Shown in pieces: positions 48,245 to 59,064 of a stretch of DNA of 64,000 nt. The DNA comes from a virus. Positions within the stretch are counted from its first letter, which is position 1. Every line of letters begins with the position of its first letter. Location: the IMG/VR virus record IMGVR_UViG_3300017989_000002. The stretch is one strand, 5' to 3'. A program made the translations under genes and the position numbers. Under the pieces are notes generated by a model. That model saw nothing but the letters and a program-made list of their open reading frames with translations, was not told the origin of the DNA and searched no databases.

Positions 48245-48261
48245 CGCATAAGGACTTGGAG
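48245..48261 (+). promoter_or_regulatory. CGCATAAGGACTTGGAG motif
   Basis: Exact 17-mer before the ATG at 48283. Confidence 0.7.
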
Positions 48262-48282
48262 AACATCTTCCCTGGAGACCTC

Positions 48283-50433
48283 ATGACCACCGAGCCTGTC
48301 CCCCACTGCACGCACCCCGAGCACGCCGACCACCCCGTCCACGACCGGCACCGCATCGAGGAGCGCGCGCGCATCAAGCGCGACAACTTCGCCTACCTGT
48401 ACGGACGCTCCCTCACGGGACGCATCCAGACCGCCCACCCCAACCCCGACGCGCGCCCCGGCGTCGACACCGGTCGCTTCCGGGACCACGAGCCGGAGAT
48501 GCAGCGCATCCCCCGTCCCTTGAGCCCCGAGGCACAGGAAGTCCTCGACCAGTGGAAGCGCGCCTTCCCGGGCGTCGACCGCTTCGGCAACGGCTCGAAG
48601 TCGAACTTCCCCCGGCGCGAGGACTTCGACAACGACGAGGACTTCGAGAAGTACGGCGAGGTCTTCGTCGGCATCGACTACGGGCAGAGCGAGATGCGGG
48701 TGCTGAGCTCCTTCGGCACCCCGCAGGACGTCCTCAAGCGCATGGACCGAGGCGAGCCCCTCTCCCGCATCCTCTTCGTCGACCACGGCCGTGCGGTCGA
48801 GATGGCGAAGAAGTTCGAGGAGGGGGCCAACCCCGCTGCGGTGTCGGAGTTCATGCGGCAGCACTTCCCCGACAACGTGCCACCCGACACCCAGGGCGCT
48901 CCCTACACCTTCGGCAAGCCGGCGCCTGCTGGCGAGATCAAGATGCTGTCGATGGGCGCACACGTGCCGGGTCCTCCACCCTGCTCCATCTGCGCGGCAG
49001 ACGCCGACCCGCCCACCTGCGAGCACATGACCGTGCCCGAGGGCTCGGAGCCGCTCGCCTCGGACGCGTGGCCTCCCTACGACGGCATGTGGATTCAGGA
49101 CGCTCCCGCGCACCAGCCTGACTACAGCCGTGACCTCTTCGCCATCAGCCACGACGCCGAGGGGCAGTTCCTCGACGCCGCCCGGCTGAAGAACGTGCAC
49201 CACTCCGACAAGGACCTGGACCGCTCGCGGCGGGTCTACGAGAAGCTGAAGGCGTACGCGCTGAAGCACGACCTGCCCGCGATCGTGCCGATGAGCTTCG
49301 TCCACGACGAGGTGGTGGTCGACGTGCCCAAGGGACACGAGGACGCCGTCGGCGAGATCTTGGCGGAGAACGCCTTCAGCGACGACCAGAAGGCGGTCAT
49401 CGAAGCCCTCAAGGCCGGGGAGATCAGCTTCCCAGAGGTCATGCTGCCCGTGTCCTGGGAGCGGCGTCCCTGGCTGAAGGAGCTCTACCAGCAGCCCTTC
49501 CGTCCGAGGGACGTCTTCATCCCCCCGTTCTCTCGCGGCAAGAGCACGCGCCTCGCCGCCGAGATGCTCCACGCCATGATGTACGACACACCCCTGGAGG
49601 CCCTCGTGAGCCCGAACGACAACCCTCACAGCGACCTGCCGCTGTACAAGAAGCCCGAGACGGACACCTTCGTGCCGCACTTCGGTCGCGAGAAGTCGGT
49701 GGCCGAGCGCATCGCCGAGGCGGACACCACGCCCACGAATTGGTTCTGCCACGCGTGCGAGGCGTCAGACGAGATCCCGTCGGACGACCCCGACATCAAG
49801 ACGTGCCCTGCCTGTGAGTCCGAGGACGTGACGGTCTACTCGCTCGACAAGGAGCACGGCGTCGGACGGTGGCAGCGCAAGCCCATCGCGGCCAGCTACC
49901 GCCGCGGCCTGTCCGCGACGCCGATGCGCGAGGACGCGCCCAGGGATCCGCGCGACACGCTGGCCTTCATCACCGGCTCGACGTCGTCGATGAAGACCAG
50001 CGTGCTGCAGGACCTGGCCAAGACGGCGGCCGTCCCCCGCTGGTGGTGCCGGAACTGCGACGCGAGTGGCTCCGACCGTGAAGAGCTGATGCGGAGCAAG
50101 CAGGGCGAGGACATCTTCCACTGCCCTGAGTGCAGCAGCGGTGAGGTCTCGTACCACCCCGGACTCAAGACGCGCGCCGAGCACCTCGTCCAAGTCGGCC
50201 TCTACGCGAAGTCAGAGGAGGCAGAGCAGGCCTCGCTGTTCGTCGAGATCACCCGCCTGGGGCCGGAGGGTCTCATGAAGGCCTTGCGCAACGTCGGCAC
50301 CGAGCCTTCCTGCGGAGCCTGCATGGCGGTGTTCTTCACCGGCACGAACCTCCACCCCCACACCTGCGACAACCCGCCGGTGGGCCTCGACTTCGAGACG
50401 ATGCCCACCGACCCAGGCGTCGGGGAGGAGTAG
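48283..50433 (+). CDS. Mosaic protein with PolA-like, helicase-like and Zn-ribbon motif fragments
   Basis: TGRF...PEMQRIPR, IDYGQSEMRVL, VHDEVV, GLSATP, CxxC pairs. Confidence 0.7.
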   Translation: MTTEPVPHCTHPEHADHPVHDRHRIEERARIKRDNFAYLYGRSLTGRIQTAHPNPDARPGVDTGRFRDHEPEMQRIPRPLSPEAQEVLDQWKRAFPGVDRFGNGSKSNFPRREDFDNDEDFEKYGEVFVGIDYGQSEMRVLSSFGTPQDVLKRMDRGEPLSRILFVDHGRAVEMAKKFEEGANPAAVSEFMRQHFPDNVPPDTQGAPYTFGKPAPAGEIKMLSMGAHVPGPPPCSICAADADPPTCEHMTVPEGSEPLASDAWPPYDGMWIQDAPAHQPDYSRDLFAISHDAEGQFLDAARLKNVHHSDKDLDRSRRVYEKLKAYALKHDLPAIVPMSFVHDEVVVDVPKGHEDAVGEILAENAFSDDQKAVIEALKAGEISFPEVMLPVSWERRPWLKELYQQPFRPRDVFIPPFSRGKSTRLAAEMLHAMMYDTPLEALVSPNDNPHSDLPLYKKPETDTFVPHFGREKSVAERIAEADTTPTNWFCHACEASDEIPSDDPDIKTCPACESEDVTVYSLDKEHGVGRWQRKPIAASYRRGLSATPMREDAPRDPRDTLAFITGSTSSMKTSVLQDLAKTAAVPRWWCRNCDASGSDREELMRSKQGEDIFHCPECSSGEVSYHPGLKTRAEHLVQVGLYAKSEEAEQASLFVEITRLGPEGLMKALRNVGTEPSCGACMAVFFTGTNLHPHTCDNPPVGLDFETMPTDPGVGEE

Positions 50434-53034: not shown

Positions 53035-53942
53035 GCCTGTGCGGACGTCGGAGGACCCGTTCGTCCGCTGCACGGTGTGCGAGAAGCCCAAGGCGCCCTG
53101 GGGCCGCGACGTGGCCGCTGCAGTGGCCAGCGACTTCTGCGAGGCTCCCGACTGCCCCGGCTACATGAAGGACCCCCACCCGGGCTTCAAGTGGCCGGGG
53201 GAGGACGCCGCTGAGGAGTGAAATAGGGCCTCCGCCCTCTCGCACAAGAGGTTGACGAGAAGGGCGGAGGCCCGAGAACTTCCACGGAGGCGACCATGTT
53301 CGACGACATCGCAGACCTGCGCGCAGCACTGGACGCGCGAGACATCCGGTACGACCAGATCACGGTGACGCGTGACGACGGGGAGTACCAGGCTGCCAAG
53401 CTGTACGCCGAGGACGACGAGGTCGGCCTGTGGTCGGCGCTGCTCATCGTGGGCGTGCCCGGCTTCCGCTACACGGGCGACGTCGACGACCCCGACGCGC
53501 CTCACGGCTTCCGCCCGGGGTGGCATGTCGACGGCGTGCAGCTGCGCCTCGACCGGTTCGGGTACCCCGGCCCGCAGGACGAGGCCGAGCTCGACGCCTG
53601 GATCTACTGGGTGGAGGAGGACCCCGACAACGAGGACGGGCACAGCCACCTGGTGCGCGCCTCCGAGAGCACGGACACCACCTTCATCGCGGCGGTGGCC
53701 TGATGCCGTACGTCAGCTGCGAGGAGGCGTGGTGCTACGAGCGGGCCCGCACCGGCGAGGACTGCTGGTCCGACCACTGGGTCCCCGACCCAAGGCCTCC
53801 CGAGGATGCGGAGGAACACGTCTGCGAGGACTGTGGCCTGGTCCACGTCCCCGAGCCGTGCTGCCCCGGCTGCCCCTGCGGCACCGGGAAGGAAGAAGAG
53901 GAGGCACCCATGCCACCGTCACGGTCAAACCCGTGACACCCC

Positions 53943-53969
53943 GCCCCGGCGCCGTCATGGCGTCGGGGC
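53943..53969. terminator. Hairpin between convergent blocks
   Basis: GCCCCGGCGCC-GTCAT-GGCGTCGGGGC. Confidence 0.6.
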
Positions 53970-54183
53970 ACCCTCGGCACGCTTCTTCGCTTCCTTCATG
54001 GCGTAGTAGGCGGCGCGCATGTGGCTGTTCTCCTCGCGCACCAGCTCGAGGTCGGCCAGCGCCTTCTGCAGCAGGGCGGCCGTGTCCGGTGCTCCCGGAC
54101 GGTTCTTCACCCTCCAGGCCAGCCGCCGCAGGGCCCTCTGCACTCGATCGATACGAGGGCACGTGGCTCCGGGAGGCTTCACG

Positions 54184-54744
54184 CTACAGCTTCTCGCTGC
54201 CCCGACCAGCGGCCCGCCTGCGGAACATGGCCGAGCTGGGCTTCTCGCCCCGGACCGCCGCGTTCCGGTTGCGGATGAGGCGGCTGCGCTGGTTCACGCG
54301 ACGAGGGCTGTTGGCGCCGGCGAGCTCGGCCTTGACCCGGGCCGGGTTCTTGGAGCCTGCCGCAGCCTGACGGCGGCGGACTTCGGAGATGGCGCCGGTG
54401 ATGCCTCCCACGCCGAGAGCCGCGGCGGCGCCCATCGCAGCGGCTTTGCCCTTGCTGGGTGGGCGCGAAGGGATGCCCATGCGGACGCTGTGGTGGTGGA
54501 TGTCTGCATCGTTCGCGAAGCTGCCCAGCGTGGCCAAGGCACCGGCGGCTCCGCCGGCGGCTCCTCCCACGCGCGCTCCGCGGCTCTTGTCCTTGCCCCG
54601 GGCCTCCATGTACTGGCGCTGCATGTTCTCGCGCTCGCCCGGCGACAGGGTGCGGTCCTTCTTCGCCGAGCGACGCATGCGCTCGTAGGGAGAGAAGGGG
54701 CCTGCGATCTTCTCCATCTCGGTGACGAACGCGTCGTGCAGCAT
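54184..54744 (-). CDS. Basic glycine-zipper protein with N-terminal DAFV.EMEK.A motif
   Basis: GGAGG RBS; MLHDAFVTEMEKIA; two Gly/Ala-rich hydrophobic segments. Confidence 0.75.
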   Translation of the reverse strand: MLHDAFVTEMEKIAGPFSPYERMRRSAKKDRTLSPGERENMQRQYMEARGKDKSRGARVGGAAGGAAGALATLGSFANDADIHHHSVRMGIPSRPPSKGKAAAMGAAAALGVGGITGAISEVRRRQAAAGSKNPARVKAELAGANSPRRVNQRSRLIRNRNAAVRGEKPSSAMFRRRAAGRGSEKL

Positions 54745-54793
54745 GGGGACCTCCGTGGACGGGAGCATACTGCTTCCAGATCTAGGATGCGAG

Positions 54794-54866
54794 TGGTCGG
54801 GGCCGGAGTCGAACCGACGACACCTGGTGTTTCAAGCCAGTGCTCTACCAACTGAGCTACCCAACC
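54794..54866 (-). tRNA. tRNA-Phe(GAA)
   Basis: GGTTGGG/CCCGACC acceptor, GCTC/GAGC D-stem, TT-GAA-AC loop, GGTTCGACTCC. Confidence 0.9.
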
Positions 54867-54870
54867 GGTG

Positions 54871-54947
54871 TGGCGGGACAGGGGGGACTCGAACCCCACT
54901 CGCAGTCGGATTTGGAATCCGCCCGGCTGATACCCCAGCTCTCTCCC
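54871..54947 (-). tRNA. tRNA-Trp(CCA), atypical D-arm, encoded CCA
   Basis: CGGA-TT CCA AA-TCCG anticodon arm, GGTTCGAGTCC, G73 plus CCA. Confidence 0.8.
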
Positions 54948-54953
54948 GGTGAG

Positions 54954-55034
54954 TGGGAGGAGTGGGGGTCGAACCCACCATGCCGAACGGCAGCCGGTTT
55001 ACAGCCAGCTTGGTCACCCCGACGCGTCCCTCCC
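54954..55034 (-). tRNA. tRNA-Tyr(GTA), long variable arm
   Basis: GGGAGGG/TCCTCCC-A, GCTGG-CT GTA AA-CCGGC, TGCCG/CGGCA variable stem. Confidence 0.9.
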
Positions 55035-55077
55035 AGAACGACGAAGCCCTCGGAGCTGGTGCGCCGAGGGCTTCATC
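55035..55077 (-). terminator. Putative attenuator terminator hairpin
   Basis: GATGAAGCCCTCGG/CCGAGGGCTTCGTC 14-bp stem then GTTCT, directly before tRNA-Tyr. Confidence 0.7.
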
Positions 55078-55098
55078 AAGGAGAGGTGCTGTCTCTCG

Positions 55099-55179
55099 TC
55101 AGGATGCCGGCGCAGTGCTCCGAGGGCAGCCAAACCAATAGGTGGCGGCGAGGAGGTTGCGCTGGCGGGTGCTGTTCAT
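55099..55179 (-). CDS. Leader peptide MNSTRQRNLLAATYWFGCPRSTAPAS (26 aa)
   Basis: ATG at the predicted +1; consecutive TAT TGG TTT match the three downstream tRNAs. Confidence 0.8.
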   Translation of the reverse strand: MNSTRQRNLLAATYWFGCPRSTAPAS

Positions 55180-55185
55180 GCCGAG

Positions 55186-55214
55186 ACCCTACTCACGCGG
55201 CGCGCGGGCGTCAA
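55186..55214 (-). promoter_or_regulatory. sigma70-type promoter TTGACG-N17-TAGGGT
   Basis: Near-consensus -35/-10 with 17-nt spacer; ATG follows 6 nt after the -10. Confidence 0.8.
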
Positions 55215-55232
55215 GGGGAAGTAGTTGAGAGA

Positions 55233-55308
55233 TGGTTGCGGGGAGCGGACTTGAACCGCCGACCTGCGGATTATGAGTCCGCCGCTCTACCAGCTGAGCT
55301 ACCCCGCG
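55233..55308 (-). tRNA. tRNA-Met(CAT), initiator-like acceptor stem, encoded CCA
   Basis: CGCGGGG/CCCCGCA-A-CCA with C1:A72 mismatch; CT-CAT-AA loop. Confidence 0.9.
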
Positions 55309-55321
55309 ACAGGGTGTGAGA

Positions 55322-55395
55322 TCCGGACGGGTGGTCTCGAACCACCGACCCCCTGCTCCCAAGGCAGGTGCGCTACCAGACTGCGCTACGCCCGG
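55322..55395 (-). tRNA. tRNA-Pro(TGG)
   Basis: CCGGGCG/CGTCCGG-A, GCGC/GCGC D-stem, CCTGC-CT TGG GA-GCAGG. Confidence 0.9.
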
Positions 55396-55421
55396 TCGAA
55401 GACCGCGGGCGCAGCTCGACG

Positions 55422-55493
55422 CTACGCCCGCTTGGTCGGTCGGGGCGTGTGAACCGGCATTCGGTTCAGCTGGAGTCGGGAGAGGTCGATCAT
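55422..55493 (-). CDS. Leader peptide MIDLSRLQLNRMPVHTPRPTKRA (23 aa)
   Basis: ATG at the predicted +1; internal ATG CCG (Met-Pro) plus two more Pro, upstream of tRNA-Pro/Met. Confidence 0.7.
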   Translation of the reverse strand: MIDLSRLQLNRMPVHTPRPTKRA

Positions 55494-55500
55494 GGCCCGC

Positions 55501-55529
55501 ACCCTACTCTCGCCCGGAGGCCGCCGCAA
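55501..55529 (-). promoter_or_regulatory. sigma70-type promoter TTGCGG-N17-TAGGGT
   Basis: Same GAGTAGGGT -10 context as the 55186 promoter; ATG 7 nt downstream. Confidence 0.75.
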
Positions 55530-55540
55530 GCTGTTCGCGC

Positions 55541-56098
55541 TCACGAAGGCGAGCCGCTTGCTCCTGACGGGTCTGGGCGGATGCCGTCTTCTTCACGGCC
55601 TGGTGCTTGTGTGGCTTGCAGAGCAAGCACCCGGCACGGGCACTCTTCGGCCGACCTCGCTTGTGGTTCATCGGGAGCCTCCGGAGCGAAGATAGACCGG
55701 GCGACGCGTCCGAGCCAGCGGCTCGCTTCCTTCGTGAACAGCCCCGCGAGAACCCCTGCGGCCGGGTAGCCCCAGGCGTTGTCGGCGTCGGCGCCCATCC
55801 CCGCCAAGAGGATGAGGCCCACCGCGAGCGCCAAGACTGCGGACTCGACGGGGTGGAGCAGGTACCACGCCGCCCAGCTGTCTTGGAAGGTGCGCGAGCC
55901 CAGCTTTGCGCCGAAGCTCGACATCGCGTGGTAGACGCCCCCCAGCATCCCGGCTGCCGCCGTGGCCGCGAGCGTAGCGTCGGGGACGCCTGCCAGAAGG
56001 CCCTCGAGGGACAGGTACAGCACGCCGCCGGCGAGCAGCAGCTGCCCTGCCAGGACGGCGAGCAGCGAGTAGATCCGGTACCAGCTGACCTGGTTCAC
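55541..56098 (-). CDS. Multi-pass membrane protein
   Basis: Four hydrophobic helices; GMLGG, WYLLHP, AGLF. Confidence 0.7.
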   Translation of the reverse strand: MNQVSWYRIYSLLAVLAGQLLLAGGVLYLSLEGLLAGVPDATLAATAAAGMLGGVYHAMSSFGAKLGSRTFQDSWAAWYLLHPVESAVLALAVGLILLAGMGADADNAWGYPAAGVLAGLFTKEASRWLGRVARSIFAPEAPDEPQARSAEECPCRVLALQATQAPGREEDGIRPDPSGASGSPS

Positions 56099-56469
56099 GC
56101 CTCTGCGCGGACGCCGGCGAGTGCCTGGAACTCGGACGTGCCCGCGTAGGAAGTCAGGCACTGCGGCGTGCAGCGAGGACATGGGCACGACAGGCCCAGC
56201 GGGCCCGTGTGCTGCGGGTTGGCCCGCTGGAACTGCTCGAACAGGCAGTCCCGGCCTCCCGTCACGAAGGGCGGGATCTGGAATGGCTCGGGCAGAGGCT
56301 CCGTGATGCGCTCGAGCGGGATGGAGGGCCTCAGCTTCTCGATGACCTCCTGCAGCTTCTCGGCATCGAGGGGCGCCTTCGCCTGGAGCTTGGTGCGGAG
56401 GATGCGCGCGCCCTCGGGGGTGAGGTGGCGGTCGTAGAGCAGCTGGTCGATGTCGGCTTCGGTGATCAC
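56095..56469 (-). CDS. Hypothetical Cys-tail protein, paralog of 20271-20552
   Basis: ITEADIDQLL...EGARILR; CPCPRC. Confidence 0.6.
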   Translation of the reverse strand: MITEADIDQLLYDRHLTPEGARILRTKLQAKAPLDAEKLQEVIEKLRPSIPLERITEPLPEPFQIPPFVTGGRDCLFEQFQRANPQHTGPLGLSCPCPRCTPQCLTSYAGTSEFQALAGVRAEA

Positions 56470-56491
56470 GGGACCTCCAGGCACGTCCAGC

Positions 56492-57172
56492 CTACCGGAC
56501 CATCGCCGGGCGGTCCAGTACGCCGATCTCGTCGGGACCCGTCCCGCGCCAGTCGTCGTTGCGCGCGCCGACGCCGGCAGCCATCACGTGCCCGTTGGCC
56601 TGCGCGCCCAGGATGTTGACGGCGTGGTCGGCCCCGAGGCAGTGCAGGAGCTCATGCGCCACCAGTGCCTCGGCATCGAGCGGGGCGTCCTCCATGCCGT
56701 ACTGCCCAGGGTGAGGGCCCGTCAGCGCGATGCGACACCTCGAGGGCGAACCGAAGGCGAACTGGGGGTCAGCGACGGCGCGCGCATCGGGTCCGGCGGC
56801 CTGCACGGCAGCGTCGTCGGTGACGAACACGAGCCACCCACGAGGGGTGGGGATGCCGAGGGAGGCGCAAGGCGCAGCCTCTGCCTCGGGCACGTACTCG
56901 ACGTTGTGACCCGCTTCGATGACCTCGGCCGCGGCGTACAGAACGAGCGGACGGGCCCAGTCGGATGTCCCGCACTGCGTGACCCGGAGCGTGTTCGGGC
57001 TGGGGGCCTCGTAGCCGGGCAGGCCGGGCACGTAGGGCGGGTAGGCGTGCAGGATGATGAGGAGCGTGATGACCACGAGGGAGAAGGCTCCGCCCACGCT
57101 CCCGAGGATGATGTTGCGGGTCTTGACGTCCACGTAGGGCCTCCCAGAACGCGAGAAGGACCCCCGAAGCAT
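56492..57172 (-). CDS. Membrane-anchored metzincin/matrixin-like Zn metalloprotease
   Basis: HELLHCLGADH (HExxHxxGxxH) plus HVM Met-turn; N-terminal TM; start codon uncertain. Confidence 0.75.
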   Translation of the reverse strand: MLRGSFSRSGRPYVDVKTRNIILGSVGGAFSLVVITLLIILHAYPPYVPGLPGYEAPSPNTLRVTQCGTSDWARPLVLYAAAEVIEAGHNVEYVPEAEAAPCASLGIPTPRGWLVFVTDDAAVQAAGPDARAVADPQFAFGSPSRCRIALTGPHPGQYGMEDAPLDAEALVAHELLHCLGADHAVNILGAQANGHVMAAGVGARNDDWRGTGPDEIGVLDRPAMVR

Positions 57173-57999: not shown

Positions 58000-59064
58000 T
58001 CACTCGAACAGGCCACGCAGCCAGTCGGGGTCCGAGATGCGGTCGAGGAGCTCGTCGCTGCGGCGCGCGGCCTCTCGGGCCACCCTCCGTCCGATCTCGG
58101 CGTCCCAGTGCCGCGCGATGCCGTCCTCGAACAGCTGCCGAAGGTGGCGCAGGTCCATCGCATCGACCTCCCACGCATCGTCGGTGTTGTGCTCGGCCCG
58201 GAACTTCTTGTACCGAGAGGAGGTGGGCTTGGCCTGGAAGGGAGGCAGGTCGAGCTCGCGCGCCTGGTCGACGTTGAGCCCCACGCGCTCGAACCGCAGC
58301 GGGAAGTGCGAGCCGGCGGTGTCCATGAGCCGCCGCAGGTTGCGCTCGGCCGACCGGGGGATCTCGTAGCCGTCCGGATCGGCGTCGCCGGCGTAGAGGA
58401 CCACCGCCTCGTTGGCGTAGCCCCCGATCTGCCGTTCGTCGTAGAGCAGGGAGGACCCCAGGCGCCAGCTCTTCTCGTCCACGTCCCCGTTGATGGCGAA
58501 GTCGGCGAGCTTGCGCCAGTCCTCGAGCACCGTGATGCTCGGGTAGCCCTTGGTCGCCAGGAAGGTCACGCCCTGCCTCGTGCAGAGCGGCTTGATGGCG
58601 GTGGTCAGGCCCTGCTTCTCCACCCACACCGAGACGAACTTGGGCTGGTGGACCCAGCGGTCCGTGGCCATCACCGTCGTGTGCATCTCCTGAATCCAGG
58701 AGCCCGCGGTGTCGTGAGCAGCGTCGACGTCGAGGTCCTCGCGACGGAAGTCCCCCTCGATGACGTCCCGGCCCTCGTCGATGATGTGCTCCATCGGCAG
58801 GAGGCCGTCCAGGCGCGCGTCCCGGCAGACGTCCCCCACCCGCTTGCAGAACCTCTCGGCCCCGATGACCTTGCCCCTCTCGTTGGTGCGGGACAGCTCC
58901 TCGGGCGAGACGATGCCTCGGCCGATGAACTTGTAGTAGAGGCCTCGCACCGTGAGGGTGGCGTTGTCCTCGTAGTACTCGAGGCAGATGGGGATGGCGT
59001 GCTCGAGGATCTCCTCCTTGGAGAGCAGCTCCACGCCGTTGTCGATGTCGTCGATGTCGCTCAT
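58000..59064 (-). CDS. TopoVI-A/Spo11-like toprim-domain protein
   Basis: TVRGLYY, VWVEK, GYPS, YAGDADPDG, WEVDAM. Confidence 0.75.
   Translation of the reverse strand: MSDIDDIDNGVELLSKEEILEHAIPICLEYYEDNATLTVRGLYYKFIGRGIVSPEELSRTNERGKVIGAERFCKRVGDVCRDARLDGLLPMEHIIDEGRDVIEGDFRREDLDVDAAHDTAGSWIQEMHTTVMATDRWVHQPKFVSVWVEKQGLTTAIKPLCTRQGVTFLATKGYPSITVLEDWRKLADFAINGDVDEKSWRLGSSLLYDERQIGGYANEAVVLYAGDADPDGYEIPRSAERNLRRLMDTAGSHFPLRFERVGLNVDQARELDLPPFQAKPTSSRYKKFRAEHNTDDAWEVDAMDLRHLRQLFEDGIARHWDAEIGRRVAREAARRSDELLDRISDPDWLRGLFE

Follow-up and report, generated by a model that had tools for sequence, protein, structure and literature searches.

Why should a phage write the codons TAT TGG TTT into a short open reading frame (ORF) ahead of its genes for tRNA-Tyr, a tRNA-Trp-like species and tRNA-Phe, and in the same order as those genes? 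The question is raised by positions 54,794–55,214 of a 64,000-nucleotide (nt) stretch of viral DNA from the record IMGVR_UViG_3300017989_000002; the whole stretch is called the window here. The source record is a 174,678-bp IMG/VR virus with direct terminal repeats and a GC content of 68%, and the window corresponds to the reverse strand of its positions 92110–156109. An earlier note, made from the letters alone, had read the minus strand of this locus as a leader-peptide attenuator controlling the tRNA genes behind it. From the present analysis, we consider it reasonably probable that the locus acts as a ribosome-mediated leader-peptide attenuator, which would gate read-through into the tRNA-Tyr/tRNA-Trp-like/tRNA-Phe block. 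The support for this reading is in silico and comes from one sequence. The parts of the locus are, in the direction of transcription:

55214–55209, minus strand: −35 hexamer TTGACG, in one of eight TTGNNN-N16-18-TANNNT matches genome-wide
55191–55186, minus strand: −10 hexamer TAGGGT, 17 nt past the −35 hexamer and 6 nt ahead of the ATG
55179–55099, minus strand: putatively leaderless leader ORF of 26 codons (MNSTRQRNLLAATYWFGCPRSTAPAS, then TGA), with ATG at 55179–55177 and TGA at 55101–55099
55140–55132, minus strand: putative sensor codons TAT TGG TTT (codons 14–16), with TAT and TTT rare and TAT-NNN-TTT unique
55127–55108, minus strand: 5′ strand of the candidate antiterminator, ORF codons 18–24
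55077–55040, minus strand: terminator-like hairpin, 14 bp (one G-U) plus 2 inner pairs, −31.6 kcal/mol
55066–55046, minus strand: 3′ strand of the candidate antiterminator, spanning the terminator loop and 3′ arm
55034–54953, minus strand: tRNA-Tyr(GTA), class II with a weak D arm, called by ARAGORN
~54947–54871, minus strand: tRNA-Trp-like gene with anticodon CCA, sub-threshold, found by ARAGORN only at -ps90
54866–54793, minus strand: tRNA-Phe(GAA), called by ARAGORN, 62.8 bits in Rfam

The promoter, given in the earlier note as TTGACG-N17-TAGGGT, is read at these positions. Sites of the form TTGNNN-N16-18-TANNNT number eight in the 175-kb genome, and the one ahead of the leader is among the two that match TTGACA in five of six positions. 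An ATG lies 4–7 nt past the −10 box at four of the eight. TAGGGT itself occurs eight times in the genome, and TTG stands at exactly N17 from it only in the two copies that precede the two tRNA blocks. The pattern of the leader promoter is that measured for leaderless genes of Streptomyces lividans, in which a −35 TTGACn and a −10 TAnnnT are followed by ~6 nt to the start site (PMC8079986). A generic promoter/terminator scanner gave nothing useful at this GC content. Outside the window (G000:C1:80416–80540), TTGNNN-N17-TAGACT is followed by an ATG at the expected start, which opens a 29-codon upstream ORF. The TGA of that ORF and the start codon of the following gene overlap as ATGA; the following gene has a ribosome binding site of its own (GGGAGG), and the arrangement is possibly one of translational coupling.

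The leader ORF is present as the earlier note described it, with its ATG at about +1, 26 codons and TAT TGG TTT as codons 14–16. Codon usage was taken from the 146 ORFs with high GC at third codon positions, which make up 79% of the genome. The rarity that the note had attributed to TAT and TTT is confirmed by this set, in which TAT accounts for 9 of 1117 Tyr codons and TTT for 11 of 1380 Phe codons (0.8% each), so that leader codons 14 and 16 have a relative adaptiveness of 0.01. Over both strands and all frames (349 kb), adjacent Tyr, Trp and Phe codons in any order occur ten times, three of them in the order of the leader, and TAT-NNN-TTT occurs once in the whole genome, in the leader. The chance expectation of a same-order triple in the 145-nt leader is ~1e-3, and ~4e-4 for one in frame. 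Ahead of the triple, codons 2–13 have a codon adaptation index (CAI) of 0.987, with 11 of 12 being the most-used synonym of the phage. This value is reached by 0.66% of random stop-free 12-codon genomic windows, real genes included, and the other two frames of the same stretch score 0.44 and 0.39. After the triple come the non-optimal codons CCT, CGG, ACT and GCG, whose third bases are paired in the antiterminator. Since optimal codons precede the sensor and the later third bases pair, the codon choice looks as if it were set by speed ahead of the sensor and by RNA pairing after it. The codon pattern suggests that the leader ORF is translated.

The 14-bp hairpin of the earlier note is likewise found at 55077–55040. 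It encloses a 10-nt loop and is followed by GUUCU, and tRNA-Tyr starts 5 nt downstream; with only these 5 nt between hairpin and tRNA-Tyr, the tRNAs would be reachable only by read-through. The helix of 11+7 bp between 55127–55108 and 55066–55046, which the note had reported to exclude the hairpin, is also present and does so. Alone, this helix has −36.5 kcal/mol compared with −26.3 kcal/mol for the hairpin. Between the first 102 nt and the hairpin loop plus 3′ arm, the most stable duplex reaches −40.7 kcal/mol, while dinucleotide shuffles give −24.9 ± 3.0 kcal/mol and none of 2000 was as good; among real 102-nt windows of the genome, 1 of 435 matched it. The 11-mers of the antiterminator helix are unique in the genome. 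We also considered GCCCTCGG as a dispersed repeat or operator and rejected it, with 20+23 occurrences against ~15 expected per strand.

A simpler explanation has to be weighed at this point, namely that the leader is constitutive. The hairpin would then either terminate transcripts of the upstream tRNA-Pro/tRNA-Met unit or act before tRNA-Tyr as a stem for processing or stability; the ORF would be untranslated and the Tyr-Trp-Phe run coincidental. The location of the hairpin downstream of tRNA-Met, with no other terminator between, agrees with this explanation, and so do the like hairpin ahead of tRNA-Pro, which lacks an antiterminator, and the distant many-tRNA phage without codon-matched leaders (both described below). 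Moreover, a 26-codon ORF is unremarkable at 68% GC. Nevertheless, several coincidences would have to be accepted together: an in-frame Tyr-Trp-Phe run in the order of the tRNAs (~4e-4 to 1e-3 expected), a CAI of 0.987 ahead of it, an antiterminator that beats 2000 of 2000 shuffles right after the sensor codons, and wobble positions suited to that helix. A promoter placed ahead of a constitutive terminator would, in addition, serve no purpose. We therefore regard a constitutive leader as unlikely.

Folding of the leader with and without a ribosome reproduced, in a thermodynamic model, the trp-type switch proposed in the earlier note. The folded RNA extended from 55179 to 55035. The ribosome was placed codon by codon, all RNA up to its 3′ edge was removed, and its reach was set at 11–14 nt past the first P-site base. 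Mask-only folding, which permits helices closing around the ribosome, was discarded. In the free leader RNA, the terminator forms with P = 0.999 and codons 18–24 are paired to the 5′ half of the ORF. With the A site of the ribosome at codons ~4–15, the antiterminator prevails. At the Tyr codon its probability is 0.58 with one of the four reaches and 0.92–0.98 with the other three, and at the Trp codon it lies anywhere from 0.01 to 0.99, as set by the assumed reach. From codon 16 (Phe) through the stop codon, the probability of the terminator is at least 0.99. Thus, the note's proposal that a ribosome at TGA leads to the terminator is reproduced by folding, while its proposal that a ribosome stalled at Tyr, Trp or Phe frees the antiterminator holds for Tyr, holds for Trp only with a short reach and fails for Phe. 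In folds of the growing transcript, the 7-bp helix with the terminator loop forms before the 3′ arm of the terminator exists, which would give the antiterminator a kinetic head start while a ribosome waits at Tyr. When the first 50 nt are masked, the terminator is lost in the real sequence and in none of 1000 sequences in which the first 102 nt were shuffled.

The sequence anatomy of this locus, its statistical exceptionality and its thermodynamic switch behaviour are direct observations. As the anatomy is real and its features lie jointly far beyond chance, the locus is very likely a functional element. The attenuator is preferred as its function because a single explanation then covers every feature: the ATG at the start site, the optimal run up to the rarest Tyr and Phe codons, the wobble bases fitted to the helix, the terminator abutting the first tRNA, and the codon order that equals the tRNA order.

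We infer where transcription starts, that the ORF is translated, that the hairpin terminates and that the switch responds to tRNA availability, and the attenuator would then operate as follows. A host-type promoter would start the RNA at the A of the AUG, or 1–2 bases from it, and with this start the 26-codon ORF would be translated leaderless. Twelve optimal codons would speed the ribosome to TAT-TGG-TTT, in which TAT and TTT, the rarest synonyms in the phage, would be wobble-read. If charged tRNA-Tyr or tRNA-Trp were scarce, the ribosome would pause on the 5′ half of the ORF and leave codons 18–24 exposed. These would pair first with the hairpin loop and then with the 3′ arm (7+11 bp), the hairpin would be blocked, and RNA polymerase would read into the tRNA genes. 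With fast decoding, the ribosome would pass over codons 18–24 to the stop codon, the 14-bp hairpin would form and transcription would stop. If the ORF were untranslated, its 5′ half would pair with codons 18–24, the 14-bp hairpin would again form and transcription would stop. Because the tRNAs produced would read the sensor codons, the circuit would be a negative feedback on tRNA supply. On the modelled folds, it would sense the decoding of Tyr and Trp codons; sensing of Phe is doubtful, as a ribosome at TTT covers the start of the antiterminator and the model predicts termination.

A further step is more tentative, that of a closed-loop, demand-driven tRNA supply. Here the ORF would gauge the decoding speed of the tRNAs encoded downstream, and a collapse of host tRNA-Tyr or tRNA-Trp, e.g., by phage-induced host shut-off or by tRNA-cleaving defence nucleases, would turn the replacements on; we hold this to be possible rather than probable. 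Bacterial and phage tRNA genes are usually described as being under growth-rate or stringent control or on a timed expression schedule. If true, a peptide leader of this kind, by measuring the decoding speed of particular codons and gating their cognate tRNA genes, would let tRNA supply feed back directly on itself. The reasons for phage tRNA expression and its timing, be it codon supply or the replacement of depleted or cleaved host tRNAs, would thereby become mechanistically accessible. The element is minimal, with three codons, three tRNAs and a 145-nt leader, and is therefore easy to synthesize and to test with reporters. The leader could act as a compact sensor of tRNA availability.

In a full-text literature search, no paper was found that describes tRNA genes, phage or cellular, as controlled by leader-peptide attenuation, and the earlier note's remark that it knew of no precedent stands within the literature searched. 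The mechanism is a known one; what would be new is that the regulated genes are the sensed tRNAs themselves. Its classical form is that of the enterobacterial leaders trpL, pheL and pheM (pheST), which follow a four-segment logic with pairings 1:2, 2:3 and 3:4. Stalling on segment 1 frees the antiterminator in trpL-type leaders; termination follows when the ribosome stands at the stop codon or when the leader is not translated. pheM regulates a component of tRNA charging. The phage leader shares this segment logic and the outcomes of stalling and of the stop-codon ribosome. The enterobacterial leaders differ from it in having a Shine-Dalgarno sequence, tandem runs of a single codon and a strong terminator U tract. 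The part of the terminator engaged by the antiterminator differs as well, being the loop plus 3′ arm in the phage and the 5′ arm in the enterobacterial leaders.

A close likeness is found in Streptomyces lividans, where eight leader-peptide attenuators are transcribed leaderless, including those before trpS, leuS, thrS and alaS, and where several of the attenuator hairpins lack a U stretch (PMC8079986). As predicted for the phage leader, trpL2-trpS, leuL2-leuS, thrL-thrS, alaL-alaS and trpL1-trpE have a TTGACn/TAnnnT promoter and start at the ATG. Peptides of 12–29 codons with one to few regulatory codons, competing hairpins that often lack a U tract, and targets that include genes of the tRNA-charging machinery complete the resemblance (PMC8079986). 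In contrast to these attenuators, the phage leader would regulate tRNA genes themselves, and it holds codons for three amino acids, one each. There is also no sequence homology found between them, and the phage host may not be an actinobacterium. The aroR-aroF attenuator of Corynebacterium glutamicum has a Phe-Tyr-Phe leader (Neshat et al. 2014), and, as far as the account in PMC11802643 goes, it resembles the phage leader in its short peptide, its adjacent aromatic codons and the control of read-through by ribosome stalling. According to the same account, its target is DAHP synthase and it responds to Phe only, whereas the run in the phage includes Trp and precedes the cognate tRNAs.

Several observations, given in this paragraph and in those that follow, weigh against the attenuator. 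One of the four promoters with an ATG at the start (63994) opens just 6 codons, and the gene that follows has a Shine-Dalgarno sequence of its own, so the ATG at +1 may be partly a habit of the promoter rather than a sign of translation, and it is modest evidence alone. The tail past the hairpin is U-poor (GUCGUUCU, 4 U in 8); the strongest hairpins elsewhere in this phage mostly lack U tracts too. With TTT in the A site, the ribosome already lies over the first antiterminator bases and the model gives termination. Finally, the pairing of the ORF 5′ half with codons 18–24, at 306 of 2000, is no better than in shuffles and was rejected as a significant feature of its own, and 40% of the sequences with the 5′ 50 nt shuffled still go to the terminator.

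The folding results also bear on two other kinds of switch. First, the ORF may be translated and the switch real, but what is gauged may be general translation capacity or transcription-translation coupling, not tRNA-Tyr, tRNA-Trp and tRNA-Phe. Ribosome availability, Rho access and infection timing are possible readouts. The thermodynamic sensing window of codons 4–15 is wider than the Tyr-Trp-Phe run and leaves the Phe codon outside, and the sister module before tRNA-Pro (see below) responds to a ribosome that reaches the stop codon; all this would be expected of a general gauge. It would not be expected that TAT and TTT, beside TGG, should be the sole slow codons among optimal ones, nor that they should agree in identity and order with the tRNAs downstream. 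We consider such a general switch improbable.

Second, the two exclusive helices, which are the best-supported feature of the locus, could be toggled by a factor acting in trans, i.e., a protein, a small RNA or a tRNA bound directly as in a T-box, and not by the ribosome. An ACCA in the terminator loop and a UGGU in the leader could indeed pair, but a complementarity of 4 nt is expected by chance. T-box riboswitches resemble the phage leader in reading the status of a specific tRNA and in switching between terminator and antiterminator. They do so by direct binding of uncharged tRNA, with conserved Stem I and T-box sequences, while the sensor of the phage leader would be a translated ORF. In an Rfam cmscan of 53500–56500 at E up to 1, neither the T-box riboswitch (RF00230) nor Trp_leader, Phe_leader, His_leader, Leu_leader or Thr_leader matched, and a T-box or other known RNA family was rejected as the identity of the leader. 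A trans-acting factor would also not account for the optimal codon choice in frame, for the ATG at the start site or for the helix-fitted wobble positions, and we hold it to be highly improbable.

The attenuator has next to be set against the rest of the tRNA cluster. The only tRNA genes of the phage form one minus-strand cluster, in the order Pro, Met, 198-nt spacer, Tyr, the tRNA-like gene with a CCA anticodon, and Phe. The upstream part consists of:

55405–55529, minus strand: second promoter/leaderless ORF/hairpin unit, TTGCGG-N17-TAGGGT-N7-ATG, before tRNA-Pro and tRNA-Met
55395–55322, minus strand: tRNA-Pro(TGG), cluster member
55308–55233, minus strand: tRNA-Met(CAT), cluster member

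The ORF of this Pro/Met module has 23 codons (MIDLSRLQLNRMPVHTPRPTKRA) and a TAG stop within the 5′ arm of an 11-bp hairpin, which ends 9 nt before tRNA-Pro. An antiterminator was looked for in the module and not found. In folding, the hairpin forms unless a ribosome stands at codon 20 or beyond; if the hairpin terminates, stalling would lower tRNA output, as judged from these folds, which is opposite to the Tyr leader. The codon match is weak as well. The Met-Pro codons lie inside a local 7-bp hairpin. The module therefore copies the layout of promoter, leaderless ORF, hairpin and tRNA, and not the switch. Since there is no terminator between tRNA-Met and the second promoter, the hairpin of the Tyr leader probably also ends the transcripts of the Pro/Met unit.

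The earlier note had the tRNA-Tyr, tRNA-Trp and tRNA-Phe genes following in codon order. Tyr and Phe are called by ARAGORN, while Trp is found only below threshold, and the quality of two of the genes is a further difficulty for the attenuator. tRNA-Tyr scores poorly in Rfam, with just 28.4 bits, to the tRNA-Sec model. The gene with the CCA anticodon is missed by default ARAGORN, has a sub-threshold 24.5 bits in Rfam and, as found with -ps90, carries mismatched pairs in the acceptor and anticodon stems, i.e., it is degenerate. These poor scores and mismatches could point to a decaying or inactive locus, with an unused promoter and pseudogenes of the Tyr and Trp-like tRNAs. The region is nevertheless identical across metagenome runs of three studies, and the perfect helices and intact promoter hexamers argue for its maintenance, so that we find a decaying locus extremely unlikely.

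The runs in question are four DNA runs from sediment and seawater metagenomes, in which near-identical DNA is found; the leader sequence is identical in all four, and there is thus no natural variation to compare. No RNA runs are among the sequencing runs listed with this DNA. Searches of IMG/VR, GenBank phages, JGI (Joint Genome Institute) metagenomes and protein collections gave no relative with this locus, and the phage as such has no close relative among GenBank phages or in IMG/VR. In blastn against GenBank phages, only the tRNAs matched. tblastn gave no match for the DNA polymerase A-like protein (window 48256–50433, plus strand), and relatives of the topoisomerase-like protein (window 58000–59064, minus strand) were all at 31% identity or less. 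Homologues of the latter with 52–66% identity are present in a protein collection, on short contigs or without DNA. Scans of IMG/VR with the flanking proteins and with exact leader, hairpin and tRNA-Tyr patterns gave no match, and no homologue was found for the gene upstream of the locus. The JGI metagenome scan, made with a 5-sequence alignment, gave 12 loci, of which the seven longest (3.2–21 kb) were scanned and had no tRNAs. Scanning IMG/VR and the metagenomes with an alignment yielded distant loci only.

A distant IMG/VR phage fragment (G002; 138 kb, 63% GC, 33% identity) was also compared. It carries 41 tRNAs in 24 small blocks with gaps of 100–3200 nt (C1:10370–29353), and ahead of its seven multi-tRNA blocks no ORF has a run of cognate codons. 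The fragment serves as an empirical control for false positives and tells that the codon-matched leader design is not universal. In the same fragment, a lone tRNA-Pro(GGG) has a 12-codon ORF with Pro-Pro 86 nt upstream, probably by chance.

How efficiently a leaderless ORF would be translated depends on the host. Identity over a 33-nt stretch of tRNA-Pro was seen only with metagenome-assembled genomes that carry the labels Geobacter, Desulfuromonadales, Desulfobulbaceae, Bdellovibrio, Desulfovibrio and similar. This hints weakly at a Desulfuromonadales-, Geobacter- or Bdellovibrio-like host rather than one of the Actinobacteria, in spite of the GC content of 68% and the TAnnnT promoters. Because these tRNA-Pro matches are confined to genomes of the Geobacter, Desulfuromonadales and Bdellovibrio type, an actinobacterial host is not to be assumed. 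A 31-mer of tRNA-Phe had no genome match, and the WhiB family had no match in the phage.

Some minor observations concern the tRNAs and their neighbours. In the Pro/Met module, the copy CGGGCGTAGCG is found again at the start of tRNA-Pro. In tRNA-Met(CAT), C1xA72 is unpaired, a trait of bacterial initiator tRNAs, and the CCA is encoded. The three G-C pairs that initiators have in the anticodon stem are absent from it, and it is possibly an initiator-like tRNA. At 55335, in the T loop of tRNA-Pro, the plus strand of the window has T, while the contigs of all four metagenome runs have A (in run X4, the contigs with A account for 7 of 14 depth). The A variant gives the commoner T-loop form TTCGAGT and is the sole difference over 2.2 kb. 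The gene directly after tRNA-Phe (window 54184–54744, minus strand) has an N-terminal F-x-x-E-M-E-K-I-A motif. Its sole homologue (53% identity) stands behind two other genes on a 2.4-kb contig (L005 269–1963) that has no tRNAs, and all three genes of this contig have an M/L-E-K-V-A motif near the N-terminus.

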